From: an uncultured Candidatus Saccharibacteria bacterium | GTDB taxonomy: Bacteria > Patescibacteriota > Minisyncoccia > Phycocordibacterales > UBA9973 | Assembly (NCBI GenBank): GCA_964622505.1 | Contig: CAZUQJ010000002.1 | Span: 71,905 to 135,904, forward strand | Length of the DNA stretch: 64,000 bases | Direction: 5' to 3' | Shown here: piece after piece, positions 6,817 through 43,546 of the stretch | Layout of the letters: each line of letters begins with the position of its first letter | Position numbering within the stretch: position 1 is the stretch's first letter | The notes under the pieces: model-generated | What the model saw: only the letters and a program-made list of their open reading frames with translations | What the model was told of the DNA's origin: nothing | The model's database searches: none | Program-made: the position numbers and the translations under genes

Positions 6817-8502
6817 TTAGGCAACTTCTTGTTGGTAGCAACTTTCGCAATAAATAATTTCTTTTCTGTCTGGAGCGTAGCTAGTCTGGAATGTTTCAGC
6901 GCATGTTGTACCTCCGTGATTGATATGCTTTTCAATAGTACACACACATTTACCCGGATACAATTTACGCGGGTTTCTTTTTGCCATTCTGGCTTGATGC
7001 CTACATTCGAAGTCCTTGTGTGGAATTGGTAAATTCATTCGTTTATAGAAATCAAATTCAGCTTTTGTTATTTTGTAATTCTTGCCACACTCATTACAAG
7101 CCAATATTTCTGAAGTAATTGCATCAGTCACAGTTGTAATACTCGAAGGTATTGTATTCTCGGGCATTGTTTCTTTACCAAAGGTGCCCGTGTTCTTTTC
7201 TTGCCAGCGATACCCCCTTTTTAAAGCCTCATTTCTTTCTAAAGGGAAAAAGTCTTGAGCCAGTGTTTCATTGTACCCAAAAGGTGCAATGTCTGTAGGG
7301 AAAAATTGACCATACTCTTTTTCTTTTTTCATTTGGTTTTCGATTTTTTCTTTTATTTTGAAATATTCTTCTTTTGAGTATGGCTTATTAAGGATCATAT
7401 AGTTACCTTTACGCACAGCAATACATCCAAACGCATTAGATAGATGATGACAGCTTTCACAATACTCAACTTCATTGCAATAAAAAACAAATGCTGAATT
7501 TTTTAATTTACTTCCTTCTAGCGCTCCCATTATATTGTATCCAAACTCTGGCTTATAGTAATAGTTGTTGCAGTCCATACTGTCTATAGGATTCTCTGAG
7601 TCTGTCATGTATGAGCAATTTTTAGAATCATATGTATCAAAAAGCATAACTCCCTCGTGACAGTTGTGCAGATAGTCTCCAGTGACATTATGGCATTTTG
7701 TTTGTGAAGTATATTTTCTAATGGCTTGAAGTTTTATCTCCTCAAAATCTTTTTTTGCCTTCTCTATTGTTTTGAAGCTCTCAAGGATTTCTTTTTTCTT
7801 TTTTTCAAATTCTTCTTTTGTGTATTTTACATTTAAAATAGAGTTTGACATGTGTCGGCCGTTTGTACAAAATATGCAATTTGATGAGTCTCGCATATTG
7901 AAACAAAACAGTAGGTCGGTAGAAGATTGGCATTGCTCAGAGTACATGCACTTAAAGCATGAGCGACAGTCCGTACATTCGTAGCAAAGTTCTGACTCAT
8001 GTAGAAATGCACAGTCTACACAAAATTTATCACGTTGCAAGAGTCTCCCGTACATACAGTCTTCGTTATAGTCAGCAGCGAATATTAAATAACAATCTTT
8101 ATTTTCTGCTGAACCGTTTGTGTACTCACTACGTACATTGTTAAAAGCCATTAAGCTTAATCTAGGCACCTCTTGTTGCAAGGCTTTGTACTGTTCAAAA
8201 AAAGATTTAGAAAAATCATAATCCACCCCGTAATCTTTTGGATCCCAGCCATCACCCCACCAGCAGTCATGACAATAGACTTTAAATGGTGATTCAGGTG
8301 TATACACAGTAATCATATCTTTGTTGCACATATCGCAAGGCCTTTTATAGAATGTTCTCTCGTTGCGGAAATTCAGTCGTTTGGCCATTCTGCAATCAGG
8401 GCAGAAAAGCGGGTGTGGGCTCTTCATCTGCTCATAAAAAACTATATCTTCGTCGCGAATTACAAATTCCTTTTCGCATGTCTTGCATAGTTGGTTAATC
8501 AT
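6817..8502 (-). CDS. Cysteine-rich protein with zinc-ribbon modules at both termini (paralog 1 of 3)
   Basis: N-term CKTCEKEF...FYEQMKSPHPLFCPDCRMAKRLNFRNERTFYKRPCDMCNK...YCHDCWW, central CxxC-dense repeats, C-term CNECGKNYKITKAEFDFYKRMNLPIPHKDFECRHQARMAKR...YCESCYQQEVA. Same layout in 29955..31652 and 31713..33494. Confidence 0.7.
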   Translation of the reverse strand: MINQLCKTCEKEFVIRDEDIVFYEQMKSPHPLFCPDCRMAKRLNFRNERTFYKRPCDMCNKDMITVYTPESPFKVYCHDCWWGDGWDPKDYGVDYDFSKSFFEQYKALQQEVPRLSLMAFNNVRSEYTNGSAENKDCYLIFAADYNEDCMYGRLLQRDKFCVDCAFLHESELCYECTDCRSCFKCMYSEQCQSSTDLLFCFNMRDSSNCIFCTNGRHMSNSILNVKYTKEEFEKKKKEILESFKTIEKAKKDFEEIKLQAIRKYTSQTKCHNVTGDYLHNCHEGVMLFDTYDSKNCSYMTDSENPIDSMDCNNYYYKPEFGYNIMGALEGSKLKNSAFVFYCNEVEYCESCHHLSNAFGCIAVRKGNYMILNKPYSKEEYFKIKEKIENQMKKEKEYGQFFPTDIAPFGYNETLAQDFFPLERNEALKRGYRWQEKNTGTFGKETMPENTIPSSITTVTDAITSEILACNECGKNYKITKAEFDFYKRMNLPIPHKDFECRHQARMAKRNPRKLYPGKCVCTIEKHINHGGTTCAETFQTSYAPDRKEIIYCESCYQQEVA

Positions 8503-10287: not shown

Positions 10288-10638
10288 TTATACTAGATTC
10301 ATGCAGATCATGCACTTGCGGGCGCTTGGATTTACATCCAATCTTTCTTCTTCGATAGCGTCACCACATGTTTCGCACTTTCCAAATTTATTTTCTTCAA
10401 TTCTTTTGATCGCGTCCTCTATGTCTCGCATTCTTCGGCCAAGCGTGTCTGTTATGGCGCTACGTTCTTCGAAATCCTCGGTACGGCTTGCCATGTCGTT
10501 TTCATCTGCTTCGGGAGCAGTTTGACTCTCTGGGACTGCATGCCAGACACCAGTTACATCGTCGCGTTTTGCAATCGAAGATAATTCAATTTCTAAATTT
10601 TTCTTTTCTTCCGCTAATTTATTTTTGTGTTTGATCAT
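10288..10638 (-). CDS. DksA/TraR family C4 zinc-finger transcription factor
   Basis: C-terminal GKCETCGDAIEEERLDVNPSARKCMICMN (CxxC-N17-CxxC) after an acidic coiled-coil region. Confidence 0.75.
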   Translation of the reverse strand: MIKHKNKLAEEKKNLEIELSSIAKRDDVTGVWHAVPESQTAPEADENDMASRTEDFEERSAITDTLGRRMRDIEDAIKRIEENKFGKCETCGDAIEEERLDVNPSARKCMICMNLV

Positions 10639-25826: not shown

Positions 25827-26717
25827 ATGGAAAATTCAAAAGAGTACTTAAAAGGTATCGTTGCCCTGCTACAACAAAATGTACGCGTTGAAGTTAGTGA
25901 CGCAACTAATTACACAGATGAAGCAAAATACAGCCAGCTTCAAAAAGTTGAAAACGAAAGAAAGGATATAACCAAAATCCTGAAAACACACATTATTCAA
26001 GATCCGGAATCCAGGTACAATCTTGAATATTCAACAGCAAAAGAACTATCCATCCTAACTGGACAAGAAAGCTCTTTTGAAGGAACACACTACTGGTTTT
26101 ATTCCCCGATTCTTGAACCAAATATTTTGTATGTAATCCTAGAAATGAGTGAAACAAAAATTGCACCTTGTAGAATTCTTACAGAAAAAGAAAACAGGAT
26201 TTTAAAATCAAGAATCATAGATATTGGTTGCGGGAACGGACTACTTCTTGAAAAACTTTCCTTGCTAGGAGTACAGAGACATCGACTTGTTGGTATAGAC
26301 ATCTCTGAACAAGCAGTTAAGAGGGTGTGTAAAATGTTTCCAAGTATTTGTGGCAGGATTGAAAATCAAAAAGATTGGTTTGAAAATTTTGATTTTGTTT
26401 TTCTAAGCTATTTTGTAGACCGTGATGAAAACCAAAAAGAGACTTTCAAAAAAAGTGTCCAAACATTAAATTGGAAAGGTTTTTTGGTGCTTGAAGGACT
26501 TTTCCCGTGTGTATTATCCGACTCTAATGGAGTTTCTTATGGAGAAGCAAATGTGACAAAAGGTTTAGACCCCGTGGAAGACATTTTGTGCGTAGTGGAA
26601 GAATGTAAACGATTGAAGGTAGTTTTGAAAAAGATTATCGTCGGTCAACGACTTGTCTACAGCTTAGACGGTTCGGAAGTTCTCCCTACCTATATTCTTG
26701 TTTTTCAAAAAGAGTAA
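25827..26717 (+). CDS. Class I SAM-dependent methyltransferase
   Basis: Motif I IIDIGCGNGLLLEKL and downstream acidic motif II. Confidence 0.6.
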   Translation: MENSKEYLKGIVALLQQNVRVEVSDATNYTDEAKYSQLQKVENERKDITKILKTHIIQDPESRYNLEYSTAKELSILTGQESSFEGTHYWFYSPILEPNILYVILEMSETKIAPCRILTEKENRILKSRIIDIGCGNGLLLEKLSLLGVQRHRLVGIDISEQAVKRVCKMFPSICGRIENQKDWFENFDFVFLSYFVDRDENQKETFKKSVQTLNWKGFLVLEGLFPCVLSDSNGVSYGEANVTKGLDPVEDILCVVEECKRLKVVLKKIIVGQRLVYSLDGSEVLPTYILVFQKE

Positions 26718-26796
26718 GAAGTTCAAAATTAATTATTACCTGCGGCGGCACATGTCGTTGCAGGTTTTATTTTTATTAGTTAATAATTTTAAAAGT

Positions 26797-27534
26797 ATGT
26801 ATAAAAAAGAAAGAAAATTTAATAAAAAAATAGACGATAAAAACTGGCAAGTGTTATTTAACACGCATTTTCAGAGTATGCAGTCACTCGGCGCAGTGAG
26901 TACTATGTGGATCAACGGATTCTCGAAACTTGGTTTTGATAATTCACAAATGCCAACAGCAGAAGCGATAAATGAGGTTTCAAAAAAATATACCGGATAC
27001 ACTTTTATCCAAACAGACGAGCGGATTATTATTCCGCAACCAGAATGGTACACAATGGTGGCAAATTATCAGCTTCCCCTCTCCAACTTCTTGCGCACAC
27101 CAGAAGAGCTTGATTATTGCGATGAGCCGGATATTTGGCACGAGATCATGGGGCACGTTGCGTTCCTGATGAATAAAGATTATTCCGACATGTATCTGTC
27201 TCTCGCAAAATTGTATATCAAGGCGTACACCAAAGATCCAAAAAATGAAACAGGAATTCTAGATAAGGTTGATTTCCTGAGCGGATACCTGATCGAGCTT
27301 GGGTTGATCCAAGAGCCAACAGGATTAAAAGCATTTGGCTCGACATTGTATTCATCTGGAGAACTGCGAGAAGCCTTTAAACCAGAAAATCAAAAAAAGT
27401 TTTCTCTTGAAATTCTTGACCAAATCAAAGGTGTTCAAAATTACGACCGATCAGCATTTCAAGGTACTTATTACATTCTTGAGAGTTTGGATCAAATGAA
27501 TGAAGCTATAGAATATCTTTCAAAAAATATATAG
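26797..27534 (+). CDS. Biopterin-dependent aromatic amino acid hydroxylase (phenylalanine-4-hydroxylase-like)
   Basis: Iron-binding signature EPDIWHEIMGHVAFL and ...YLIELGLIQEPTGLKAFGSTLYSSGEL are collinear with PhhA; ORF opens at 26698 but start set at ATG 26797, which avoids overlap. Confidence 0.65.
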   Translation: MYKKERKFNKKIDDKNWQVLFNTHFQSMQSLGAVSTMWINGFSKLGFDNSQMPTAEAINEVSKKYTGYTFIQTDERIIIPQPEWYTMVANYQLPLSNFLRTPEELDYCDEPDIWHEIMGHVAFLMNKDYSDMYLSLAKLYIKAYTKDPKNETGILDKVDFLSGYLIELGLIQEPTGLKAFGSTLYSSGELREAFKPENQKKFSLEILDQIKGVQNYDRSAFQGTYYILESLDQMNEAIEYLSKNI

Positions 27535-27585: not shown

Positions 27586-28035
27586 ATGGAATCAAAAAAA
27601 ATTTTCACAATTTGTGCGGTAGCAGTGTTACTGTTTTCTGCTTATGCTCTCTATGTCATTGATACAATGACAGTACGAGGAGCCATTGTAATGATCGGCT
27701 TCTCTGTCACATTCTTTCTTTTAGGTGTTGCCTGGGGAAAATCTACTCTTTATTCTATTTCACCCAATAAAGAATATACTTATTGGGGTAGGGCTGGGGA
27801 ATTGATTTTCCTCCAAGATGATTATGAAGATATTCATAGTGCGTACTCTTTAAGTGATCAGCTTAGTAGTAGCCCTTTCGAGCCTAATTATTCTGAAGCA
27901 AATGATATCGTTGTTCAGAAAATTCAAAGGTTCAGAGTCTACAAAGCAACAGTATTGAACGGTGCCAGGTTACGTTTGGGTCAAAAGTGTATTGGCCTTG
28001 CAAATAACCAAATCAAAGGTAAAAAAAATAAATAA
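27586..28035 (+). CDS. Hypothetical membrane protein
   Basis: Two N-terminal TM helices; hairpin terminator aagcccacgta-gta-tacgtgggctt downstream. Confidence 0.4.
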   Translation: MESKKIFTICAVAVLLFSAYALYVIDTMTVRGAIVMIGFSVTFFLLGVAWGKSTLYSISPNKEYTYWGRAGELIFLQDDYEDIHSAYSLSDQLSSSPFEPNYSEANDIVVQKIQRFRVYKATVLNGARLRLGQKCIGLANNQIKGKKNK

Positions 28036-29954: not shown

Positions 29955-31652
29955 ATGGAAACAAAGAACTGCCAGAATTGTAAAAAGGATTTCGTCATCG
30001 ACGAACGAGATGCGCTTTATTACAAGAAGATAAATGTCCCCCACCCTACTTGGTGCCCTGGGTGCCGGTTTGTCCGTAGGGAAGCAAAGATAAATGGCTT
30101 TACTGTTTTTTATCGTAATTGCGATCTGTGTGGCAAGCGTACCCTCTCAGCTTATCCACCATCACAGAAAATTACCGTATATTGCCAGCCGTGTTGGTGG
30201 GGTGACACTTGGGACGGCACAGAGTTTGCAATGGATTATGACTCAAGTCGTAATTTTCTCGAACAAGTAAAAGAACTCAGTGACAAAACTCCTTTTTGCG
30301 CACTCGAGACAACATATCTAACTCTCAAAGATTGTGAGTATTGCAATGCAATTGCTTATAGCAAAAATTGTATTCTGGCTAGCTGGTCCGATTATTGTGA
30401 AAATGTTTGCTACTCGGGATTTAATAATGGCGTCAAAGATACCTCCGACTGCTTGCGCATGCAGGATTCTGAGCTGTGTTATGAATCTATCGGGCAAAAT
30501 AAATCCTATCGCACTTTATATTCCGAAGAATGTGATTCCTGTACTGATGTAATGTTCTCTCGCAATTGCTATAGCTCGACAAATTGTATTGGTTGTGTAA
30601 ATTTACGCGGGGCGACATATATGATTTTCAATGTGAAATATTCAAAGGAAGAATATGCCGAGAAAGTAAAAGAGATGAAGCTTGATACTCGATCGGGGAT
30701 CAAAAAAGCAAAAGAAGAATCCGAGAAATTCTGGAAAACATTCCCCTACCGCGCATATAGTGGCAATACTTTCAACCTCAATACTACAGGCGAATATGTG
30801 TATGGTTCCAAAAATTCTAAAGAAATGTATATTTCAAACGGCGCCGAGGATTGCCGGAACTGCCAATTTGTCACAGTAGCGCCGGCGCGCGATTGTATGG
30901 ATTATTCAGGCTGGGGCAACAATGCGCAACTAATTTATGAATCGGCAAATATTGGTGACAATGTGAGTAATGTAAAATTTTCTTGTTACTGCTTTCCTGA
31001 TGTATTAAACACTGAATATAGTATGTGGGTGATTGCGGGTAAAAATAATTTCGGCTGCGTGAATCTCAAGCGCAAGCAATACGCGATACTTAACAAAGTT
31101 TACGATCAAAGTACTTACGAGAAATTGAAGGAGCAAATAATAGAGAGTATGAAAAACGATCCTTATATAGATAAACTGGGCAGAGTGTATACTTATGGTG
31201 AATTTTTTCCACCAGAATTTGGTAAGTTCCCGTACAACGCATCGAATGTAAGCAAATTTATCCCAAAGACAAAAGAGCAAGCCGAGAGTGAGGGATATTT
31301 CTGGCACGAAGAGCCCGAGACTGTTGTCGAATCTACAATTGATGGCAACAATTTACCCGAGACATTGGCTGAAAGTGGGGATGCAATTTTAAACGAAGTT
31401 ATAGCTTGTACAACTTGCCCAAAGAAATACAAAATAATTCAACTCGAATATAGCATCTTGCAAAGATTAAACATTCCAATCCCAGACCAATGCTCAAAAT
31501 GCCGAGAAAAAAATCGCTTTGCAAAAATTAACCCACCTATATTCTACGAGCGTAATTGCGCGAAATGCAATGAAATTGTCACCACCGCCTATACTCCCGA
31601 AAGACCCGAAGTAATCTATTGCGAAAAATGCTACCAAGGAGAATTTGTTTAA
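29955..31652 (+). CDS. Cysteine-rich protein with terminal zinc-ribbon modules (paralog 2 of 3)
   Basis: N-term CQNCKKDF...YYKKINVPHPTWCPGCRFVRR...CDLCGK...YCQPCWW, C-term CTTCPKKYKIIQLEYSILQRLNIPIPDQCSKCREKNR...CAKCNE...YCEKCYQGEFV; collinear with 6817..8502. Confidence 0.7.
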   Translation: METKNCQNCKKDFVIDERDALYYKKINVPHPTWCPGCRFVRREAKINGFTVFYRNCDLCGKRTLSAYPPSQKITVYCQPCWWGDTWDGTEFAMDYDSSRNFLEQVKELSDKTPFCALETTYLTLKDCEYCNAIAYSKNCILASWSDYCENVCYSGFNNGVKDTSDCLRMQDSELCYESIGQNKSYRTLYSEECDSCTDVMFSRNCYSSTNCIGCVNLRGATYMIFNVKYSKEEYAEKVKEMKLDTRSGIKKAKEESEKFWKTFPYRAYSGNTFNLNTTGEYVYGSKNSKEMYISNGAEDCRNCQFVTVAPARDCMDYSGWGNNAQLIYESANIGDNVSNVKFSCYCFPDVLNTEYSMWVIAGKNNFGCVNLKRKQYAILNKVYDQSTYEKLKEQIIESMKNDPYIDKLGRVYTYGEFFPPEFGKFPYNASNVSKFIPKTKEQAESEGYFWHEEPETVVESTIDGNNLPETLAESGDAILNEVIACTTCPKKYKIIQLEYSILQRLNIPIPDQCSKCREKNRFAKINPPIFYERNCAKCNEIVTTAYTPERPEVIYCEKCYQGEFV

Positions 31653-31655
31653 CAA

Positions 31656-31685
31656 AAGCCCAAAGCAATGCTTTGGGCTTTTGTT
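31656..31685 (+). terminator. Hairpin aagcccaaagc-aat-gctttgggctttt between tandem Cys-rich genes
   Basis: 9-bp stem + T run; nearly identical hairpin at 36058-36081. Confidence 0.5.
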
Positions 31686-31712
31686 ATGTATTTGCTATGT
31701 TATACTTTTTGT

Positions 31713-33494
31713 ATGGAAAATAAAACATGTCAGAATTGTAAACAAAACTTTAATATAGAGGTTGATGATGTGTCTTTTTATACACGGATGAATGTGCCCT
31801 ATCCTACCTTTTGCCCTATGTGTCGTGCGCAGCGACGTTTGGCTTTCCGCAATGAGCGTGGACTATATAAGCGCAAGAGTGATTATAGTGGTAAAGAAAT
31901 TTTCTCTATGTATTCCAATGAATCACCAGTCAAAGTTTACGAGCGTGATGTGTGGCTATCGGATGTGTGGGACCCGACAGAGTACGGGCGCGACATTGAC
32001 TGGTCCAGACCGTTTCTCTCCCAACTTTATGAGCTTATGCTTGAGGTGCCATTCAAGGCCAACAATCTTGTCCATGGAGTTGATAGTGAATACTCCAACA
32101 ATGCCACAGACCCAAAGAATTGCTATCTCGTATTCAATGCCACCAATCCCGAAGACTGCATGTACTCCAATGGCGTCAATTTCTCTCGCGATTGTGTAGA
32201 TTGCTCACATATTTCAAAAACAGAATCAAGCTACGGTAGCTTTTGGCTAGGTTCCTGTTACCGCACTCATTACTCATCTCAATGTGTAGATTCGAGTGAT
32301 TTGTATTTTTGTCGAGATTGCCAAGGATGCCTCAATTGTTTCGGCTCAGTAAATTTGCGTAACAAGAGCTACTGCTTCTTCAACGAGCAGATGACAAAAG
32401 AGGAATATAATAAAAGAGTTGAGGAGTATAAATTACACACTCACGAGGGTGTCGAGAGGGCGACAAAAGATAGCAAAGAATTTTGGAATAAATTCCCAAA
32501 CAAAAATCACCAAGGGATAAAAAATTATTTTTGTGATGGATCGTATGTTAGCAATTCCAAAAATGTCCATGGATCATTCCTAGTTCGTGAATCCGAAAAT
32601 ATAAAATATAGTCAGTATTTACAAGAGACTCCAGGATGTAAAGATTGCTACGACTATAGTATTTGGGGTGATGGCGCCGAGCTTGTGTACGAGGCTGTGT
32701 CTTGTGGAAGCGGTATACAAAATGTAAAGTTCGCATTACTTACACAGGAGAATGTACACGATACAGAATATACTATCAATTGTACAAACGGATCACAAAA
32801 TTTATTTGGCTGTGTGGGCTTGCGCAAATATGAATACTGCATACTCAATAAACAATATACAAAAGAGGAATATGAAATTTTGGTAGATAAAATAAAAAAG
32901 CACATGGAAGAAATGCCATATGTAGATAAAGAGGGCCGCGTATATAAATACGGCGAATATTATCCTATCGAGATGAGTCCGTGGGCTTACAACGAAACTC
33001 TAGCTCACGAATACTTCCCTCTAAAGAAGGATCAGGCTCTAGAACAAGGATACCGTTGGCGTGATCAAGATGCAAAAGCGTACGTACCAACAATGTTAGT
33101 GGAGAATATTCCGGCAGATATTCATGAAGTACCAGAAACGATAACTTCCGAGATTATAGAATGTGCACACAAGAGCGCTTGCAATCATAATTGCACAAAA
33201 GCATTCAGGGTTACCATAGACGAGCTTTCGTTTTATCGAAAAGTTGGGATACCACTGCCCACTCTGTGCCCTGCCTGCCGTACCATGGAGCGACTCAATT
33301 TCCGACTGCCGATCAAATTGTATGACCGTACTTGTATGTGTGCTGGCGCTAGTGATATCACTGGCCAATACCAAAATGTAGGAACTCATGCTCATGCCGG
33401 ATCACTTTGTGAGGAAACATTCAAAACAGGCTTTTCCCCAGATGGAGATGCGATAGTCTATTGCGAGAAATGCTACCAGCAAGAAGTGATTTAA
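31713..33494 (+). CDS. Cysteine-rich protein with terminal zinc-ribbon modules (paralog 3 of 3; second N-terminal Zn site degenerate)
   Basis: ORF opens at 31668 but start set at ATG 31713 (MENKTCQNCKQNF...) by analogy with the paralogs; N-terminus keeps CxxC...FCPMCR but has replaced the next four Cys (KRKSDYSGK...YERDVW); C-terminus ends YCEKCYQQEVI. Confidence 0.7.
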   Translation: MENKTCQNCKQNFNIEVDDVSFYTRMNVPYPTFCPMCRAQRRLAFRNERGLYKRKSDYSGKEIFSMYSNESPVKVYERDVWLSDVWDPTEYGRDIDWSRPFLSQLYELMLEVPFKANNLVHGVDSEYSNNATDPKNCYLVFNATNPEDCMYSNGVNFSRDCVDCSHISKTESSYGSFWLGSCYRTHYSSQCVDSSDLYFCRDCQGCLNCFGSVNLRNKSYCFFNEQMTKEEYNKRVEEYKLHTHEGVERATKDSKEFWNKFPNKNHQGIKNYFCDGSYVSNSKNVHGSFLVRESENIKYSQYLQETPGCKDCYDYSIWGDGAELVYEAVSCGSGIQNVKFALLTQENVHDTEYTINCTNGSQNLFGCVGLRKYEYCILNKQYTKEEYEILVDKIKKHMEEMPYVDKEGRVYKYGEYYPIEMSPWAYNETLAHEYFPLKKDQALEQGYRWRDQDAKAYVPTMLVENIPADIHEVPETITSEIIECAHKSACNHNCTKAFRVTIDELSFYRKVGIPLPTLCPACRTMERLNFRLPIKLYDRTCMCAGASDITGQYQNVGTHAHAGSLCEETFKTGFSPDGDAIVYCEKCYQQEVI

Positions 33495-34614: not shown

Positions 34615-35997
34615 ATGCTAGCTTCCATCTCTGCTTCAGCCCTAGCTGAATTCAAAAAACCAAAAAGATTGATGTGTAGATTGTTCGATCATCTGTATCA
34701 TGATTTTCTACACTACTCTATTTACAAGGTCGTGTCTCCTGACAAAAGATCGCTCTACATTATTTTGGAAGTTATTCCTTATGATGATTTCCTCATTGAA
34801 GTGCTTTTTTACATAAGGCACATCACATCTAAAGAAGTTGCTTGTCGGATCACGCATGATAATGCGATAGAAATCTCGATCGGCAAAGACACAGATGAAA
34901 AGGAAATTGTTATTAAGAACGAATACTTTCAAGATTTTATGAAGCATTTTTCTGAAAAAGAGAAAAACGACTTTAAATCTCAAAACCCGGTAAAAACAGA
35001 GACCGCAACACCGGACAGTATAGTTGCATACTCATCAAATTCAAATTCTAAAAAATTTACAGTAATGACGAAACAAACAGTACACCCAACAACCTTGCCC
35101 GAACTTTTAAGTCGGCTAAACAATGATTTAAATTCAGAATTAAAACTTTATCTTGGAGAAGATTTTACAGCCCTTGATATTGATAAAAGTCCAGGGAATC
35201 GTATTTTTTTAAAAGCAAAAACGGTTGAAATACGAAAACAGGTAGAGTGCTATGATTGGACTTATTGTACAACCTCAAAACAGGAGAATGACCCGAATAC
35301 GAGAACCCTTTGGTTTTACCTGAAACCCGAGGAGCAAAAAACAAAAGGCTCTAAAGTGGAGATTTCACCAGAGAAAAAACACAGACTGGAAGCTCTGCAC
35401 GTAGTTGTTCTTAAGTTTGTTTTCGGTAAAAATTTCGTTTATCCATCCGATGTAAAAATTAATTTCACAGAAGGATATATTTCCTGCAATTGCAAAACCA
35501 AGGAAAAAGCCGATGAACTTAAAAAGTACTGCGATGAAGGTGATTTAGAGCATGTATTTATAACGAAAGATTCGTCCAAAGAACACCTTGTTTACATCAC
35601 CCATGTAGATAAAAGACCGGATGAAGTAATTGAAGTTACAAAAATTAAGCAGTATGCTCAATCCTTTTTATCTTTTGCGGATTCCTACACAGCTCAAAAG
35701 CTCGAACTTTTGAATGTTAAAAACCTTCTTCTGCTTCAAAAAAAGGAGATTGATGATTTGAAGCAAAAAAATGAAGGGCTTGAAAACTTGCTCAAAGCAG
35801 AAACGGAAGACAAAAATGCAAGATTGAGTAAGGAAGACATGTTACAAAAATTAGGGGAATCATTTAAAGCCCTTCAAGGTAAATATCCTTCGGTTCAAAT
35901 ATTCCGTCGGTACAAGAAGGATGATGGCACTGAGATTGGAGAAGAAATTAAAGAAAAAAGTTTCCTCGCCACACTCCATCTTTTGTTTGGAATTTGA
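34615..35997 (+). CDS. Hypothetical cytoplasmic protein with C-terminal coiled coil
   Basis: 460 aa, no signal peptide or TM, no recognisable motif; hairpin terminator agccgatcc-acaatta-ggatcggct + T run at 36022-36052. Confidence 0.45.
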   Translation: MLASISASALAEFKKPKRLMCRLFDHLYHDFLHYSIYKVVSPDKRSLYIILEVIPYDDFLIEVLFYIRHITSKEVACRITHDNAIEISIGKDTDEKEIVIKNEYFQDFMKHFSEKEKNDFKSQNPVKTETATPDSIVAYSSNSNSKKFTVMTKQTVHPTTLPELLSRLNNDLNSELKLYLGEDFTALDIDKSPGNRIFLKAKTVEIRKQVECYDWTYCTTSKQENDPNTRTLWFYLKPEEQKTKGSKVEISPEKKHRLEALHVVVLKFVFGKNFVYPSDVKINFTEGYISCNCKTKEKADELKKYCDEGDLEHVFITKDSSKEHLVYITHVDKRPDEVIEVTKIKQYAQSFLSFADSYTAQKLELLNVKNLLLLQKKEIDDLKQKNEGLENLLKAETEDKNARLSKEDMLQKLGESFKALQGKYPSVQIFRRYKKDDGTEIGEEIKEKSFLATLHLLFGI

Positions 35998-36079: not shown

Positions 36080-37588
36080 CTAAACTCCGTGTTTTTTATG
36101 TAATTTAGTAACTTCTTCCTCCTCTAACTCTTCTTTTTTCTCTTTGGCTTTGTCACCCAGAGCTTTCAAGTCAATGTCCGATAATTCTTCCAACTCCCCT
36201 ACTCTTTCTTTTAAGACCTCGATTTCATTTTTCTTTGGATCTTCCAAGACTTCTTCGAGCAAGGCATTTAGTATCCAGCCCATACGGGGGCCGGCTTTTA
36301 CTTTCATTTCATTCATCAAATAATTGCCATCAATTTTTAACTGCCCGACAGAGATCGGGTCACGTAAGCATTCCTCGATCATGGCATGGTACTTGCGCAA
36401 GCGGTATGGCGCTTCCTTTTTATTCATGCCTACCCTATCGCATTCACGAATCTGCATTAGTTCCCAGATATGCTCGGGGCCAACCTTTTGGATTATCCTA
36501 CGTACTGCTGAGAGTGTAATCATTTCTGTGTCGGAAAAGAACATGTGGTTGCGTACCATGGATACTACAAAATCGATTGATTTCTTTGGGAATTTGAGGC
36601 GCTCCATAATAGCTTTTGCCATACGCGCACCTATGACTTCGTGGCCATAGAAGGTGTAGGCTTTCTTTGTCCCTGGTCGGCGACTTCGTGGCTTGCCAAT
36701 GTCGTGGAAGAGTGCGGCCAATCGGATATCTGTCGAGTAGCCTTTGTCGGTGGCATTGCCGAGTGCGCCGAGTAAATGCTCGAACACATCGTAGATATGC
36801 GCCCCACCTTGCTCGCATCCAATTCCCTCTTCGAGCTCAGGAATAATATATTTGAGCAATCCAAGTTTTTGTAGCAATCCAATTCCCTGCGTGCCGTTCG
36901 GACTTTCAATAATTTTTGTAAATTCATCACGAATTCTTTCAGCGGAAATATTTTTTATTAATTCAGAGTTCTTTTCCACAGCTTGCATTGTCTCGTAATT
37001 TATTGCGAAACCAAGTTGTGTGGAAAACCGGATCGCTCGCAACATACGCAAAGCATCTTCTTGGAATCTTTCATTTGCATCCCCCACTGCCCGAACAACT
37101 TTGTCCTTTATGTCTTGTTGTCCTTTATAAAGGTCTAAAAGTTGTCCTTTAGAGCTAAAAGCCATGGCGTTTATAGTGAAATCTCGTCTTTGAAGGTCAT
37201 CTTCTATGTGTTTACTAAATAAAACCTCGTCTGGGTGCCTATTATCGCTATATTGAGCCTCTGTACGGTACGGTGTAACCTCTGTAATCCAATACTCAGT
37301 TTCATGTGTAACGTCTTCGGATGTTTCCCGTGTAACCTTTGGTATGCAAACGCCTACTGTTCCAAAAGTGTTTTCATATATAGTCTTCTCAAACAAAGGA
37401 ATGATCTCTTCTGGAGTGGCATTTGTAGCGATATCCCAATCTTTCGGTCCGCCAGCCGGCGGATTTTCTAATAACATATCGCGAACACAGCCACCTACAA
37501 GAAAAGCCTCAAAACCAGCGTTTTCGAGAGTTGATGTTACATGTGTAACATATGAGGGTATTTTATTTTGATCTATGATTTGTTTCAT
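36080..37588 (-). CDS. cca: CCA-adding tRNA nucleotidyltransferase with HD domain
   Basis: Pol-beta-like NTase head GGCVRD...D.D, HD motif LAALFHDIGKP. ORF opens at 37693 and overlaps tRNA-Arg, so start set at ATG 37588 (MKQIIDQNK). Confidence 0.85.
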   Translation of the reverse strand: MKQIIDQNKIPSYVTHVTSTLENAGFEAFLVGGCVRDMLLENPPAGGPKDWDIATNATPEEIIPLFEKTIYENTFGTVGVCIPKVTRETSEDVTHETEYWITEVTPYRTEAQYSDNRHPDEVLFSKHIEDDLQRRDFTINAMAFSSKGQLLDLYKGQQDIKDKVVRAVGDANERFQEDALRMLRAIRFSTQLGFAINYETMQAVEKNSELIKNISAERIRDEFTKIIESPNGTQGIGLLQKLGLLKYIIPELEEGIGCEQGGAHIYDVFEHLLGALGNATDKGYSTDIRLAALFHDIGKPRSRRPGTKKAYTFYGHEVIGARMAKAIMERLKFPKKSIDFVVSMVRNHMFFSDTEMITLSAVRRIIQKVGPEHIWELMQIRECDRVGMNKKEAPYRLRKYHAMIEECLRDPISVGQLKIDGNYLMNEMKVKAGPRMGWILNALLEEVLEDPKKNEIEVLKERVGELEELSDIDLKALGDKAKEKKEELEEEEVTKLHKKHGV

Positions 37589-37688
37589 CTGAAACGTTTT
37601 GTGGTCAGGAATAGTTTTTTGGTAAAAACTTTCCCGACCCGGGCTCGTGCCGCCGCACTCCGCCTTGCACCAATTACCCCGTAATTTG

Positions 37689-37760
37689 TGCACCCGTCAG
37701 GACTCGAACCTGAAACGACTGTTCCGAAGACAGTAATGATATCCATTTCACCACGGGTGC
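37689..37760 (-). tRNA. tRNA-Arg (anticodon TCG)
   Basis: Cloverleaf checked by hand: 7-bp acceptor gcacccg/cgggtgc, D arm, anticodon stem actgt/acagt with loop cttcgga, T loop ttcgagt, discriminator A. Confidence 0.8.
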
Positions 37761-37897
37761 AAAATAATGGTTATTTGCGACCAATTCATTGTATACTAAA
37801 ACCTTAATTTAGTAAATAACATTATAAAATAAGGTTAATTTATCAAATTGCAATTTTTGTTTAAAATAGTTATAATCTATGAGTTATTTTGGCATTT

Positions 37898-37968
37898 GCG
37901 GGATTGGTTTAGTGGTAGAACACGTCCTTGCCAAGGATGAGACAGGAGTTCGATTCTCCTATCCCGCA
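37898..37968 (+). tRNA. tRNA-Gly (anticodon GCC)
   Basis: gcgggat acceptor, anticodon stem cgtcc/ggatg with loop ttgccaa, T arm ggagttcgattctcc; near-identical to E. coli tRNA-Gly(GCC). Confidence 0.85.
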
Positions 37969-38238
37969 CAAAATAAAAAATCCTCTGTCTTTAATCTGTC
38001 CGTTTATTTAAATAGAAAACTCTTTAAAATCAAGGAATATGTGGATAAGTATGTGTATTTAGGGTATAAGAGACACAACTTTCTTAAAGGCAATATGTCG
38101 GGCACACAAAGAAATTTACGTTTTAGGCTATGTAAAATAAGGTTATTTTATGAAAGACACATTAAAACAGACTTTTTATGTCTAATAAATAGCAAAACGT
38201 TTCACGTGACACATATTTAAGTGTTACACATGTAACAA

Positions 38239-38655
38239 ATGAAGAATTTTACTTCAAAAAGTCAAAAAATAGGGGAATTGGGTGAGGATGTTGCTTGCAA
38301 ATACCTTGAAAAACATGGTTTTGCTGTGTTGGAGCGTAATTATACAAAGAAATGGGGTGAAATAGATATTATTGCCAACAAAGAAGGGAAGTTGTATTTC
38401 ATAGAGGTTAAGTCTGTTTCTCGAGACCTAGATCATTTGAATTCAGCAGTAGAGAATGTTACACGTGGAACATTCCGGCCCGAAGAAAACATGCATCCTT
38501 GGAAAATGAAGCGCTTGGCTCGAACTGTAAGTACTTACTTGATACACAAAAGGATAGGGAACACACCGTGGCAATTCGACTTACTGGTTGTTTGTATCGA
38601 TATGAGTAAGAGGCTTGCCCGAGTAAAGGTTGTAGAGAATGTTATTTTAGGTTAA
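38239..38655 (+). CDS. yraN: YraN/UPF0102 family endonuclease
   Basis: GELGEDVACKYLEKHGFAVLERNYTKKWGEIDIIANKEGKLYFIEVKS matches the YraN core. Confidence 0.8.
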   Translation: MKNFTSKSQKIGELGEDVACKYLEKHGFAVLERNYTKKWGEIDIIANKEGKLYFIEVKSVSRDLDHLNSAVENVTRGTFRPEENMHPWKMKRLARTVSTYLIHKRIGNTPWQFDLLVVCIDMSKRLARVKVVENVILG

Positions 38656-38676
38656 AAAATTTGGTATAATAAAAAT

Positions 38677-39198
38677 ATGAATACTAATAATCAAAAAGGT
38701 ATAATAAAAAGTCTAGTTATTATTTTAGTGTTTGCTGTTGTTGTGTTTGTGTATGTACTCTATTTACAAGGTCAAGTAAAAAATGTGCGAGACGAAAGGA
38801 TTGTATTGGATAAAGATTTCACAAAGCAACTGCTATCTAACTGTGGTTTGACTATACAGCATCCAGTGAAAGATCAAAAAATAAGTACAACTACTGGTAT
38901 TGATATCTGGGCAGTGTTGGACAATACCAAGCGCGAAGCTCTTGGTTGCTCGTGGGTAGCCTTTGAGGCGCAAACTGGGGTAGTGTATGTAAAAGATGCT
39001 GACGGTAAAGATATTGCAACGCCTGCACCACTTACCACTATCGAAGAGTGGATGACAGAAAAAGCAGTAAATTATTCTACTCATGTTTCAATTTTGAACA
39101 ATTATACGGGTCCTGCGACGATAACAATCGAAGAAGAGAATCCGTCAGGGGAGAGACCTTCAAAAGTAATTTCTATCCCTATAATTATTGTTGAATAA
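38677..39198 (+). CDS. Hypothetical secreted/membrane-anchored protein
   Basis: N-terminal TM/signal (VIILVFAVVVFVYVLYL), no motifs. Confidence 0.45.
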   Translation: MNTNNQKGIIKSLVIILVFAVVVFVYVLYLQGQVKNVRDERIVLDKDFTKQLLSNCGLTIQHPVKDQKISTTTGIDIWAVLDNTKREALGCSWVAFEAQTGVVYVKDADGKDIATPAPLTTIEEWMTEKAVNYSTHVSILNNYTGPATITIEEENPSGERPSKVISIPIIIVE

Positions 39199-39290
39199 AA
39201 TAAAAACCCTTTTTTTATCTCCTAGCTCGAGAGTTGGGTGGCGATTGTTTTTTGCGTAAAATATGCTAATATAAAAGGATTGTTACGTTT

Positions 39291-39361
39291 CGGGGTGTAG
39301 TACACCGGTAGTATACGCGGTTTGGGACCGTGAGAACAGGGTTCAATTCCCTGCACCCCGA
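39291..39361 (+). tRNA. tRNA-Pro (anticodon TGG)
   Basis: All four stems pair (acceptor cggggtg/caccccg, anticodon stem cgcgg/ccgtg, loop tttggga, T loop ttcaatt). The overlapping 75-aa ORF 39222..39449 is spurious. Confidence 0.85.
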
Positions 39362-39520
39362 CAAGAAAATCCACGCAGTGGATTTTCGTTGGGGTGAGGA
39401 CATGAACTGCTTCATGTCCTTCAGGGAATTGAAAGATTTTTCCATACAAGCACAGCTTGGCGGAAAAATACCTGGCTATGTAGTAGCCAATTCCTTACCT
39501 TAAGAAAAATTTAATAATTT

Positions 39521-39591
39521 GCGGGATTAGTTTAGTGGTAGAACTACAGTTTTCCAAACTGTTGGCAAGAGTTCGATTCTCTTATCCCGCA
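39521..39591 (+). tRNA. tRNA-Gly (anticodon TCC)
   Basis: gcgggat acceptor, anticodon stem acagt/actgt with loop tttccaa, T arm agagttcgattctct. Confidence 0.85.
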
Positions 39592-39600
39592 CAATAAAAT

Positions 39601-43156: not shown

Positions 43157-43490
43157 GGTTCCGCGTCGAATGATCGCTATCTATATTATTTATAATAATG
43201 GGTAGAGGAAAGTCCGAACATTTATTTCTAGAGTAATCTAGAGGAAGAGTAGCAGGTAATGCCTGTCTGGGGTAACCCAAGAGGTGCGAGCAGTGACGCC
43301 GATGCCGAAAGGCTAGGGCTCCTTCAGGAGTAATCGTATGGAAACATGCGGGTGAAACGGCTAAATCCTTACTTGAATGCAAGATCGTGCCTTTGCGTAA
43401 GCAGGGGAGAATCGCTTGAGCTATGTGGCGACACATGGCCCAGATAAATGATCATTTCAAACAGAATTCGGCTTATGAACGCGAAACACA
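43157..43490 (+). ncRNA. rnpB: RNase P RNA (reduced bacterial type)
   Basis: CR-I gaggaaagtccgaac, gggtgaaacggc block, CR-V acagaattcggcttat; P1 candidate guuccgcgu/acgcgaaac; ends are approximate. Confidence 0.7.
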
Positions 43491-43546
43491 TACGAAGACA
43501 CACGGCACCAAAGGCTGTGTGTTTTCATTTCTACTTATTAAGAAAA

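Follow-up and report, generated by a model that had tools for sequence, protein, structure and literature searches.

Three genes in the 64-kb stretch of DNA analysed here (the window) encode members of a very large protein family that is centred on the ultra-small Patescibacteria and has not previously been described or named. Their products, pA, pB and pC, and the family at large almost certainly share a single layout, ZZ-S-S-X-ZZ. Here ZZ stands for a pair of Cys4 treble-clef fingers, one zf_Tbcl-like and the other of CxxC-x17-CxxC or zf_Tbcl_2 type, the same pair being found at both termini; S is a narrow beta-solenoid whose inward-pointing positions, one in three, are taken by Cys, Ser or small aliphatic residues, with a conserved cap and helix (FGC.NL+.+.Y.I.N..Y[ST]KEEY) closing each copy; and X is a near-invariant aromatic insert. 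A common layout of the three genes had been proposed in a first, sequence-only reading, and the full-length alignment of the paralogues, which are 37-38% identical in pairs, bears it out.

Patescibacteria make up a large share of bacterial diversity, with genomes of about 1 Mb in which most proteins are without known function. Given its size, the strong conservation of its orthologues, the ten copies present in the MAG JTS-AC38 and the lack of any model or structure matching its core, it is very probable that the family fills an important, lineage-specific role. The ZZ-S-S-X-ZZ map could become a set of family models for annotation, which would be the main gain should these proteins be only structural scaffolds.

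The three family genes expected from the sequence-only reading are all present as intact ORFs, and the family HMM retrieves exactly these from the window:

6817-8502, minus strand: pC, ORF of 561 aa, third paralogue, finger N2 intact
29955-31652, plus strand: pA, ORF of 565 aa, paralogue group A, all four Cys4 sites intact
31650-31686, plus strand: terminator-like hairpin with a 17-bp stem and a T-rich tail; overlaps the stop codon of pA
31713-33494, plus strand: pB, ORF of 593 aa, paralogue group K, finger N2 without its four Cys

The length of about 593 aa assumed earlier for pB was right, its true start being at 31713 (MENKTCQNCK); a longer ORF opening at 31668 was rejected, for that start falls inside the hairpin. 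The position of the hairpin between pA and pB suggests that the two may be transcribed separately, or with attenuation. As to other genes of the window, comM ends 22 nt upstream of the pC start on the same strand, xerC-xth lies immediately upstream of pA, and a CCA-adding enzyme and tRNA genes are found 2.6-4 kb downstream of pB.

pA, pB and pC are predicted to be soluble cytoplasmic proteins, since they have no hydrophobic segment (maximum Kyte-Doolittle 19-residue window below 1.0) and the first finger starts at residue 6; neither a signal peptide nor a transmembrane segment was found in the three sequences. The AlphaFold model of pA (pLDDT 89, pTM 0.89) and the alignments divide the chain as follows, all on the plus strand:

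29955-30098: finger N1, aa 1-48, C6-x2-C9-x24-C34-P-x-C37-R and then a basic helix; zf_Tbcl-like
30099-30209: finger N2, aa 49-85, C56-x2-C59-x17-C77-x2-C80; zf_Tbcl_2 type
30330-30638: beta-solenoid 1, aa 126-228, with ladders of Cys/Ser at each third residue up to a final CxxCxxCxxC coil and the N226 cap
30639-30740: helical hairpin 1, aa 229-262, KYSKEEY-type, DSSP helices 231-241 and 246-260, pLDDT > 95
30741-31100: beta-solenoid 2, aa 263-382, homologous to solenoid 1
31101-31310: helix 2 and aromatic insert, aa 383-452, YGEFFP...[SK][PF]F.YN[EA][TS]...G..W
31311-31394: variable acidic linker, aa 453-480, poorly conserved
31395-31649: finger pair C1 (aa 481-528) and C2 (aa 529-565), terminus YCEKCYQGEFV

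Terminal finger pairs

The N-terminal module of pA (aa 1-95) and its C-terminal counterpart (aa 478-565) are homologous, as had been noticed at first sight (hhalign probability 99.8%, E 1.5e-28, 80 columns); N1 pairs with C1 (E 8e-23) and N2 with C2 (E 1.4e-12), and by the same method the two fingers inside one module are dissimilar to each other. Details of the earlier description need amending. The first finger reads CxxC-x24-CPxCR, not CxxC-x(16-18)-CPxCR; the RNER motif occurs in pB and pC and is absent in pA; and the loss of the second N-terminal site, ascribed to pC, concerns pB, which lacks all four Cys, while pC keeps the site. In pA, C2 is C535-x2-C538-x17-C556-x2-C559; pB carries insertions in both C1 and C2, according to the paralogue alignment, and C1 of pC has three Cys (C469, C472, C500) with an Asp at the fourth position.

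Among 144 diverse members, the four Cys are intact in 139 at N1, 84 at N2, 113 at C1 and 141 at C2. The N2 Cys are mostly lost together; about four in ten sampled family sequences are without this site, and N2 and C1 losses are correlated (odds ratio 11.6 in the 144 members, a statistic that ignores phylogeny). Finger Cys tend to be retained or lost as sets, unlike core Cys. Conservation is also strong at the extreme C-terminus (...YCE.CYQ.E..). Of the fingers, N1 and C1 are basic (median charge +2 and +5); the core is acidic, the whole-protein pI being about 5.5-6.2.

Fingers N2 and C2 have the spacing of zf_Tbcl_2 (PF23477, TIGR04272; curated cut-offs 27 and 36 bits), together with its ...Y.P...[VI]YC..C signature. 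The match of this model lies below the 27-bit cut-off in both pA (17.2-18.8 bits, E 0.0013-0.0043) and pB (19.5 bits); it extends to 34 of 35 relatives at E < 0.01 (best 2.7e-7), and many homologues bear a precomputed PF23477 match. In known examples zf_Tbcl_2 either makes up a free-standing protein of ~60 aa or is a short appendage; in a family protein of ~565 residues it contributes 2 x 30. Fingers N1 and C1, with CxxC-x24-CPxCR plus a helix, were likened to zf_Tbcl (PF13451, 'probable treble clef / zinc-ribbon domain'; cut-off 24 bits), of which positions 4-46 of 48 match pA residues 3-44 below that cut-off, at 16-19.6 bits (E 9e-4 to 0.012); 8 of 35 relatives match the model at E < 0.01. 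ICP-MS has shown Zn bound to small CxxC-x17-CxxC proteins from Methanosarcina mazei (PMC12704099). From these domain matches, the analogy with M. mazei and the retention of Cys as sets, the fingers of pA, pB and pC are predicted to be zinc-binding.

The C-terminal pair of pA gives a weak zf_Tbcl_2 match too. The C2 finger also matches Pfam LIM weakly (E 0.008), and a LIM protein is the sole PDB sequence match, over the same finger and without significance (E 0.4). LIM proteins (CRP1/CRP2, PDB 1ctl and 1cxx) use two consecutive treble-clef Zn sites as a protein-docking module; their fingers are contiguous, whereas those of the family are kept apart by an Arg-rich helix and a linker, and ligand sets and spacing differ.

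Solenoid core and aromatic insert

The core is built of two homologous modules of ~100-120 aa, each with its helix (solenoid 1 against solenoid 2: hhalign probability 99.95%, E 1.2e-37). The Cys of solenoid 1 have a period-3 power of 1.39, as against 0.054 in shuffles, none of 2000 reaching 1.39; the signal is found in pA, pB and pC singly (p <= 0.0004) and has no significance in solenoid 2 (p = 0.074). The period in solenoid 1 and the homology of the two modules uphold the view that the core Cys have conserved spacing and are no low-complexity sequence. The KYSKEEY-type helical linker described earlier exists as well; rather than once, it occurs twice (pA aa 226-234 and 380-388), once per solenoid.

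That the core Cys serve as metal ligands, which the sequence-only reading implied, finds no such backing. They swap independently with Ser, Val, Leu, Ile or Thr, and pA itself has Ser, Gln, Ser and Thr at four ladder positions. The last coil of solenoid 1 is all-Cys in 81 of 144 members, and all-Cys coils are near the independent-column expectation (81 observed vs 72.6 expected; 26 vs 14.5). Cys number 27-49 per chain (~6%), those of the core 8 to 37. Because the columns exchange independently with Ser, Val and Leu, the core Cys look like interior packing positions rather than obligate metal ligands.

Narrow beta-solenoids are known from the Tenebrio molitor antifreeze protein (PDB 1ezg), the ryegrass ice-binding protein (3ult) and curli CsgA (8c50), the latter two having no sequence relationship to the family. 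In the first, 80 of 82 residues align, and an inward Cys, Ser or Ala every third residue is shared; a search for sequence similarity between the two gave none. The insect protein is secreted and disulfide-bonded, with a TxT ice-binding face, whereas in the family, predicted to be cytoplasmic, Cys are exchangeable and the solenoids lie between zinc fingers. The family would add a cytoplasmic protein to a fold, the narrow beta-helix lined with Cys, whose other known case is the insect protein. Its solenoid, with three residues per side, may stand for a new class of cytoplasmic fold in which a metal column could be held. A left-handed beta-helix acyltransferase was rejected (no Hexapep Pfam repeats, a different period and no sign of a trimer interface), as was a pentapeptide-repeat protein (no Pentapeptide Pfam match, a differing period and no sign of DNA mimicry).

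The aromatic insert is near-invariant across the 144 members, at G415, F417, F418, P419, S423, Y427, N428, A432, G447 and W450; as an isolated query it has no Pfam match. The linker that follows has a net charge of -7 in pA and a median of -3 in the family.

Family extent and gene neighbourhoods

A sequence search returned 3569 homologues of pA, all unnamed or 'hypothetical', and no Pfam or NCBIfam model covers the family core, so that the impression of no characterised family holds; nor was any solved structure found to resemble the family. It comprises 2020 clusters at 50% identity and E < 1e-30. Some sources label members 'CxxC-x17-CxxC domain-containing protein', and Peregrinibacteria homologues are labelled 'zinc-ribbon domain containing protein'. 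Members also occur in MAGs labelled Bdellovibrionales. Outside Patescibacteria, N-terminal GNAT fusions are conserved in at least 9 clusters, and there is one N-terminal fusion to an inositol-monophosphatase / CysQ-like domain. IMG/VR yielded no relative and BFVD nothing at E <= 0.001; the sole PADLOC match was NsnC (E 0.0016, on a Lys/Glu-rich helix of pC), the best PHROGs match had E 0.0045, and an anti-phage defence or phage protein was rejected accordingly.

The copies had been taken as paralogues in the course of diverging. They represent, rather, paralogue lineages of long standing with separate sets of orthologues, because orthologues are 54-93% identical (pA 60-93%, pB 67-88%, pC 54%) as against 37% between paralogues; pB has orthologues in L002 (88%), P0121 (70%) and L083 (67%), and the closest relative of pC is P0124. 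Dozens of columns are invariant across paralogues, and 206 members fall into 43 clusters at 45% identity. In Paceibacteria the genes form arrays of up to 9 in 22 kb, with 189 of 190 array members co-directional. The ten copies of JTS-AC38, ~1.7 kb each, lie on three contigs.

Over 84 related loci, the commonest neighbour is a gene for an orphan soluble VirD4-like ATPase, within 3 kb in 26 loci and often adjacent or interleaved; in many Paceibacteria a pair of such VirD4/TrwB-like ATPases (FtsK-HerA superfamily) flanks or interleaves the arrays. By sequence, the flanking ATPases have no membrane anchor. The longer ATPase of the pair bears the CxxC-x17-CxxC finger, which is present on 13 of 14 long ATPases, and the family N2 HMM matches 12 long ATPases and only one other of 1255 ORFs. 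In Patescibacteria, orphan homologues of VirD4 that are unlinked to virB4 number about two per genome (PMC12102498). Conversely, where a finger-bearing ATPase served as anchor, only eight of the 41 loci spanning 10 kb or more contain a family member, and in all eight the ATPase is among the nearer relatives, sharing at least 61% identity with the query; the pair is also found alone, without the family, in most lineages. On these counts the coupling of family and ATPase is lineage-specific, and it could be inherited synteny. No VirD4-like ATPase was found in the 64-kb window.

A second arrangement, pilMNO, a small TM gene, rluA, the family gene and rplS, surrounds pA-type orthologues in 12-16 loci; in L001 a gap of 4 nt follows rluA. 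Finally, cutA1 adjoins arrays in 8 loci.

Possible roles

A rigid, zinc-stabilised binding scaffold or adaptor is tentatively favoured over an enzyme or a metal store. The outermost fingers N1 and C2 with their Arg-rich helices, almost never lost, would form together with the insert X a common docking surface for a macromolecule, either nucleic acid or protein, and specificity would be supplied by the solenoid surfaces, which diverge between the old paralogue lineages. Such specificity would explain why Paceibacteria retain so many distinct copies, up to 10 or more, in arrays that run in one direction. Against a scaffold, the recurrence of rluA and rplS beside the family offers another candidate neighbour set, the GNAT and inositol-monophosphatase fusions may hint at a function in catalysis or with small molecules instead, and the near-invariant core Asp, Asn and Tyr are compatible with an active site.

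The weakest step is the partner: the pair of VirD4-like ATPases is the best candidate, though it is doubtful that the family works with them. Rather unlikely, too, is the further idea that both make up an unrecognised Paceibacteria-specific machine, the family proteins being adaptors or cargoes handled by an FtsK-HerA-type motor. If true, the machine would move DNA or protein as part of the episymbiotic way of life, with a repertoire of ten or more rigid zinc-capped solenoids. A testable hypothesis is offered for the orphan VirD4-like ATPases of Patescibacteria.

The setting of pA-type orthologues between rluA and rplS, in at least 12 loci, speaks for an otherwise unlikely role in RNA modification or ribosome biogenesis, in which the finger pairs, with their basic helices, would clamp tRNA, rRNA or a ribosomal particle. 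Along the same line, CCA-adding enzyme genes lie near family members in the window and in L085, tRNA genes are present in the window, and one GNAT-fused member, its GNAT domain weakly RimI-like, lies downstream of iscS-mnmA-miaB/rimO-like-rnc-der. However, the neighbours of other GNAT-fused members are unrelated, the rluA/rplS arrangement is limited to one paralogue group and may be inherited synteny, no RNA-binding domain is recognised, the pI is acidic, and arrays of nine paralogues are left unexplained.

Patescibacteria possess T4SS and many orphan coupling proteins (PMC12102498), and arrays adjacent to or interleaved with coupling-protein homologues would suit effectors whose conserved C-terminal module is recognised by the VirD4-like ATPases for delivery to a host cell; multigene arrays are typical of effector repertoires, and the MAGs labelled Bdellovibrionales would be from predators, if the label is right. 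Such export is nonetheless improbable: orthologues that share 60-93% identity over many species, and dozens of columns invariant across paralogues, do not fit effectors, which evolve fast, chains with four compact Zn sites (as predicted) and rigid solenoids would be poor translocation substrates, and the ATPases are unanchored and mostly occur without the family.

There is likewise little probability of a beta-helix enzyme, for instance one transferring acyl or other groups as left-handed beta-helix acyltransferases do, with a substrate related to CoA or nucleotides. The fusions mentioned above and the near-invariant D84, D96, Q104, D165, N226, D316, N380, K381 and N428 speak for it; no Hexapep or other enzyme match in Pfam or NCBIfam, an inward-facing period of 3 unlike the hexapeptide pattern, and the presence of over ten diverged paralogues in a reduced genome, unusual for a single activity, speak against.

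A metal or thiol buffer, with the inward Cys ladders binding a metal-ion column or Fe-S clusters or acting as a redox sink, is very improbable, for all the Cys content, the CxxCxxCxxC coils and the cutA1 neighbours: core Cys are replaced singly, vary widely in number, are not kept or lost in concert, and match no ferredoxin or metallothionein model. Ferredoxin/Fe-S, radical-SAM and SPASM proteins were rejected for the same independent variation and for want of a Fer4, Radical_SAM or SPASM match; an anti-sigma factor (ZAS) was also rejected, there being no Pfam or NCBIfam match and no sigma gene noticed among the neighbours examined.

The sequence-only proposal of a zinc-ribbon protein working with its neighbours XerC, exonuclease III and ComM is largely refuted, and hardly to be credited, because the linkage is not conserved: of 84 loci, one has comM near a member and four have xerC/xth, all in close relatives, which marks the proximity seen in the window as local synteny. 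The order xerC, xth, family gene does recur in four relatives; in the 93%-identical relative a TrmB regulator gene intervenes between xth and the pA orthologue.

Three paralogues in the window

A search of all six frames of the window with the family HMM finds the paralogues pA, pB and pC and no further member. They are listed here with the hairpin that lies between two of them.

6817-8502, - strand: pC, intact ORF, 561 aa
29955-31652, + strand: pA, intact ORF, 565 aa
31650-31686, + strand: terminator-like hairpin, 17-bp stem with 7 GC pairs and a T-rich tail, overlapping the pA stop codon
31713-33494, + strand: pB, intact ORF, 593 aa

The three proteins are 37-38% identical in pairs over their full length (alignment A1, of the three window paralogues), and cysteine makes up 5.4-6.6% of each (32-37 residues). 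The hairpin ends 27 nt 5' of the pB start; a longer pB reading, from 31668, would begin within it, and the start is therefore taken as 31713. A terminator or attenuator probably separates pA from pB, and so strong a hairpin argues against simple co-transcription of the pair. The exact pA protein has no record in the public assemblies looked up. Its orthologues are 60-93% identical to it and it falls in the largest cluster group, those of pB are 67-88% identical, and the nearest relative of pC stands at 54%; judged by these identities, the three are old paralogue lineages rather than recent duplicates.

In the closest relatives (loci L002:4725-6093, L003 and L004; pA 93% identical), a divergent TrmB-family regulator gene and a 198-aa ORF without a Pfam match lie between the pA and pB orthologues, and a second TrmB gene lies 5' of the pA orthologue, so that these genes intervene between xth, pA and pB. 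The window, where only 31653-31712 separates pA from pB, lacks all of these genes, which marks an indel-prone spot.

Paired fingers and a cysteine-lined core

The layout of the family may be written ZZ-S-S-X-ZZ, that is, a pair of Cys4 fingers at each end (N1 and N2, C1 and C2), two beta-solenoids (S) and a conserved aromatic insert (X). BLASTP self-comparison finds no internal repeats; since it is blind to them here, profile-profile comparison of sub-alignments from 146 family members was required. The N-terminal 95 residues prove homologous to the C-terminal 88 (probability 99.8%, E 1.5e-28, 33% identity over 80 columns), as had been proposed from the sequence alone. Finger 1 pairs with finger 1 (E 8e-23) and finger 2 with finger 2 (E 1.4e-12) across the termini, and no relationship links the two fingers inside one terminal module. 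The core likewise consists of two modules that are homologous to each other, aa 112-262 and aa 263-402 (probability 99.95%, E 1.2e-37), both of which close with FGC.NL+.+.Y.I.N..Y[ST]KEEY followed by a helix.

AlphaFold2 with 144 diverse sequences gives a model at pLDDT 89.0 and pTM 0.89, superseding an earlier run with 35 close sequences (pLDDT 76.7, pTM 0.80, solenoids at pLDDT 50-65). In the model, the termini form small strand-strand-helix fingers, residues 126-228 and 263-382 form strand-rich repeats with single bridges at every third residue, helices span 229-262 and 383-402, and residues 403-452, the X insert, are short alpha/beta. The insert holds the densest near-invariant run outside the fingers (G415, F417, F418, P419, S423, Y427, N428, A432, G447, W450). 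The family proteins have no hydrophobic segment and their first zinc knuckle begins at residue 6, so they are soluble and cytoplasmic.

The termini are zinc fingers, and their cysteines tend to stay or go as sets among the 144 members compared.

Members retaining all four cysteines (CCCC) of each finger
N1: 139/144
N2: 84/144
C1: 113/144
C2: 141/144

Where N2 is not intact, three or four cysteines are mostly missing together, and losses of the inner fingers (N2, C1) are correlated with an odds ratio of 11.6 over 581 sequences, a value not corrected for phylogeny. In the window, pA has all four finger sites, pB has lost N2, and C1 of pC keeps three Cys plus Asp. The outer fingers and the X insert are thus the invariant parts of the family, and the inner fingers are dispensable. 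The finger helices are Arg-rich (R38, R41, R42 and N47 in N1; R517 and R521 in C1), the net charge being +2 for N1 and +5 for C1, against an acidic core.

In solenoid 1, cysteine recurs at every third position, with a period-3 power of 1.39 versus 0.054 in shuffles, a value reached by 0/2000 shuffles; the signal holds within pA, pB and pC each (p <= 0.0004). In solenoid 2 it is not significant (p = 0.074). In every core Cys column, Ser, Val, Leu, Ile and Thr occur beside Cys, single proteins have between 8 and 37 core Cys, and all-Cys coils occur near the expectation for independent columns (81 observed vs 72.6 expected; 26 vs 14.5). This answers the refuting condition that came with the sequence-only reading: the core repeats have a conserved spacing and are not low complexity, but as metal ligands their cysteines are not conserved. 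I take the core cysteines to point inward and to serve for packing in a very narrow beta-solenoid. The antifreeze beta-helix of Tenebrio molitor (TmAFP) shares this pattern, with C/S/C/A at every third residue. A coil of 12 residues is suggested by the ladder registers and the likeness to TmAFP, the Cys periodicity supporting period 3 alone, and that for solenoid 1 only.

Known relatives, distribution and expansion

Against Pfam, pA, pB and pC have only sub-threshold matches (zf_Tbcl_2, zf_Tbcl, Zn_ribbon_LysW), and against NCBIfam only a weak one to TIGR04272; of 35 relatives, 34 carry zf_Tbcl_2 and 8 carry zf_Tbcl. The CxxC-x17-CxxC domain is known to bind zinc in small proteins of Methanosarcina mazei (PMC12704099). 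Isolated S1, S2 and X segments match nothing in Pfam at E <= 10 except noise. Among all PDB sequences, searched with phmmer and the family profile, the best match is a LIM finger at E 0.4, judged noise; BFVD yields no match at E <= 0.001, IMG/VR no relative, and PADLOC and PHROGs marginal matches only. One of these, PADLOC NsnC (E 0.0016), a Menshen effector (PMC12065111), was judged spurious, for it spans a Lys/Glu-rich helix in one paralogue only. Another, phrog_15341, a phage family of unknown function, is weakly matched by residues 130-313 of pB and pC (about 180 aa, in solenoid 1; E 0.005-0.009) and may be distantly related to the S module as a stand-alone protein. Literature searches on the Pfam names and on cysteine-rich beta-helix proteins from Patescibacteria brought up no description of the full-length family. 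No model, structure or paper was found for the family as a whole, its ZZ-S-S-X-ZZ layout, its S module or its X insert. The parts are of known kinds, namely zf_Tbcl-type treble-clef fingers and a beta-solenoid; the family and the architecture assembled from these fold classes are, as far as found, new. Its annotation value is high and its biological interest moderate to high.

In a database clustered at 90%, pA has 3569 matches; among those listed, all are unnamed or 'hypothetical protein' apart from two 'CxxC-x17-CxxC domain-containing protein' entries, and the sources are Nomurabacteria, Paceibacterota or Patescibacteria. A profile of the three paralogues retrieves 4738 representatives at 50% identity, 2020 of them at E < 1e-30. 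At least 565 loci were confirmed in GTDB species representatives, the named lineages among the matches listed (Nomura-, Jorgensen-, Giovannoni-, Staskawicz-, Lipton-, Morani- and Sungii-bacteria) all being Parcubacteria/Paceibacteria. Searching from a divergent member extends the family to Gracilibacteria and Peregrinibacteria, and to a clade beyond typical Patescibacteria, with a GC content of 52% and one member that carries the label Bdellovibrionales. In that clade, an ElaA/RimI-like GNAT domain is fused N-terminally in at least 9 clusters (members P0257 and P0271-P0278, 725-734 aa; L088:6001-8196), and in one more cluster the fusion partner is an inositol-monophosphatase / CysQ / HisN-like domain (P0285; L092:3687-6185). 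The neighbourhoods of fused members are not conserved; the divergent representatives P0180 and P0270, their flanks being too short, were left out of the context comparison.

Outside typical Patescibacteria, the family is single-copy in the loci examined. In Paceibacteria, 53/84 loci carry at least two copies, with arrays of up to nine in 22 kb (L033, L062), 189/190 array members are co-directional, and one MAG holds 10 copies over three contigs. The paralogy is ancient: grouping the 206 full-length members at 45% identity yields 43 clusters, and single arrays mix clusters.

Genomic neighbours and possible roles

The proposed link to DNA-processing genes did not survive comparison, as comM stands near a member in 1/84 loci and xerC/xth in 4/84, all close relatives. 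More frequent are genes for VirD4/TrwB-like ATPases, present in 26/84 loci in two forms, neither of which has a membrane anchor. The form of about 490 aa lies upstream of, or interleaved with, family arrays; the form of 600-1000 aa lies downstream, usually paired with a paralogue of about 490 aa, and after it comes a membrane-anchored Lamin-tail (LTD) + PKD protein. In 13/14 long forms, a CxxC-x17-CxxC finger directly follows the ATPase domain (Pfam zf_Tbcl_2, E 2.7e-12), and among 1255 ORFs the family N2 HMM picks only 12 long ATPases and one other ORF. The long ATPase, a soluble protein (L066:15673-18708, L047:15725-18325 and 11 more loci), keeps 70-78% identity across 'candidate phyla' of Paceibacteria. 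Its finger lies near residue 450, and it also has a long tail rich in Pro, Glu and Lys and, conserved at the C-terminus, the motif KEVPE..L.K.LE.

In a published survey of 2918 Patescibacteria genomes, 5713 VirD4 homologues were found, and virB4 lay nearby for just 148 (PMC12102498). With some two copies in a genome of about 1 Mb, chance adjacency is roughly estimated at a few percent, versus 31% observed. The reverse test started from 80 metagenome loci retrieved by their finger-bearing ATPase. Of the 41 loci at least 10 kb long, only 8 have a family member next to the ATPase, and all eight belong to the closer ATPase relatives (identity to the query 61% or more); the two ATPases are also seen together without the family, and the window has no ATPase of this type. 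The link is real but lineage-specific, and could be inherited synteny.

The role tentatively favoured is that of a rigid, zinc-stabilised binding scaffold, in which the outer fingers and the X insert would make a common docking surface and the paralogues would owe their individual specificities to their diverged solenoid faces. Its least certain step is the partner system, for which the finger-bearing VirD4-like ATPase pair is a doubtful candidate; that the family marks a new Patescibacteria-specific system built around orphan VirD4-like ATPases is somewhat less probable still. Each of four rival explanations faces specific contrary evidence. An RNA- or translation-linked factor, the best of them though improbable, draws on the recurrent order pilM-pilN-pilO-small TM-rluA-[pA type]-rplS (rplS = L19), seen in at least 12 loci, and on one GNAT-fused member that adjoins mnmA, a miaB-like gene, rnc and der. 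A role as T4SS cargo is quite unlikely, and equally so a beta-helix enzyme, towards which the GNAT and phosphatase fusions and the invariant polar residues point. A metal or thiol buffer is the least likely of the four.

The window shows some further features around the family genes. The ORF at 26698-27534 (+) has a biopterin-dependent aromatic amino-acid hydroxylase domain (Pfam Biopterin_H, E 5e-19), which is unexpected for a metabolically reduced Patescibacteria genome. Two flanking ORFs are without a Pfam match, at 27586-28035 (+; 149 aa, with a hydrophobic stretch at the N-terminus) and 34615-35997 (+; 460 aa). A DksA/TraR-type C4 zinc-finger protein (10288-10638, -; Pfam E 7e-8) is encoded about 170 nt upstream of comM, on the strand common to comM and pC. 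Four tRNA genes (37688-39592; Arg-TCG, Gly-GCC, Pro-TGG, Gly-TCC) adjoin the gene of a CCA-adding enzyme (36080-37693, -), and a bacterial class A RNase P RNA lies at 43158-43491 (+; 114.6 bits).
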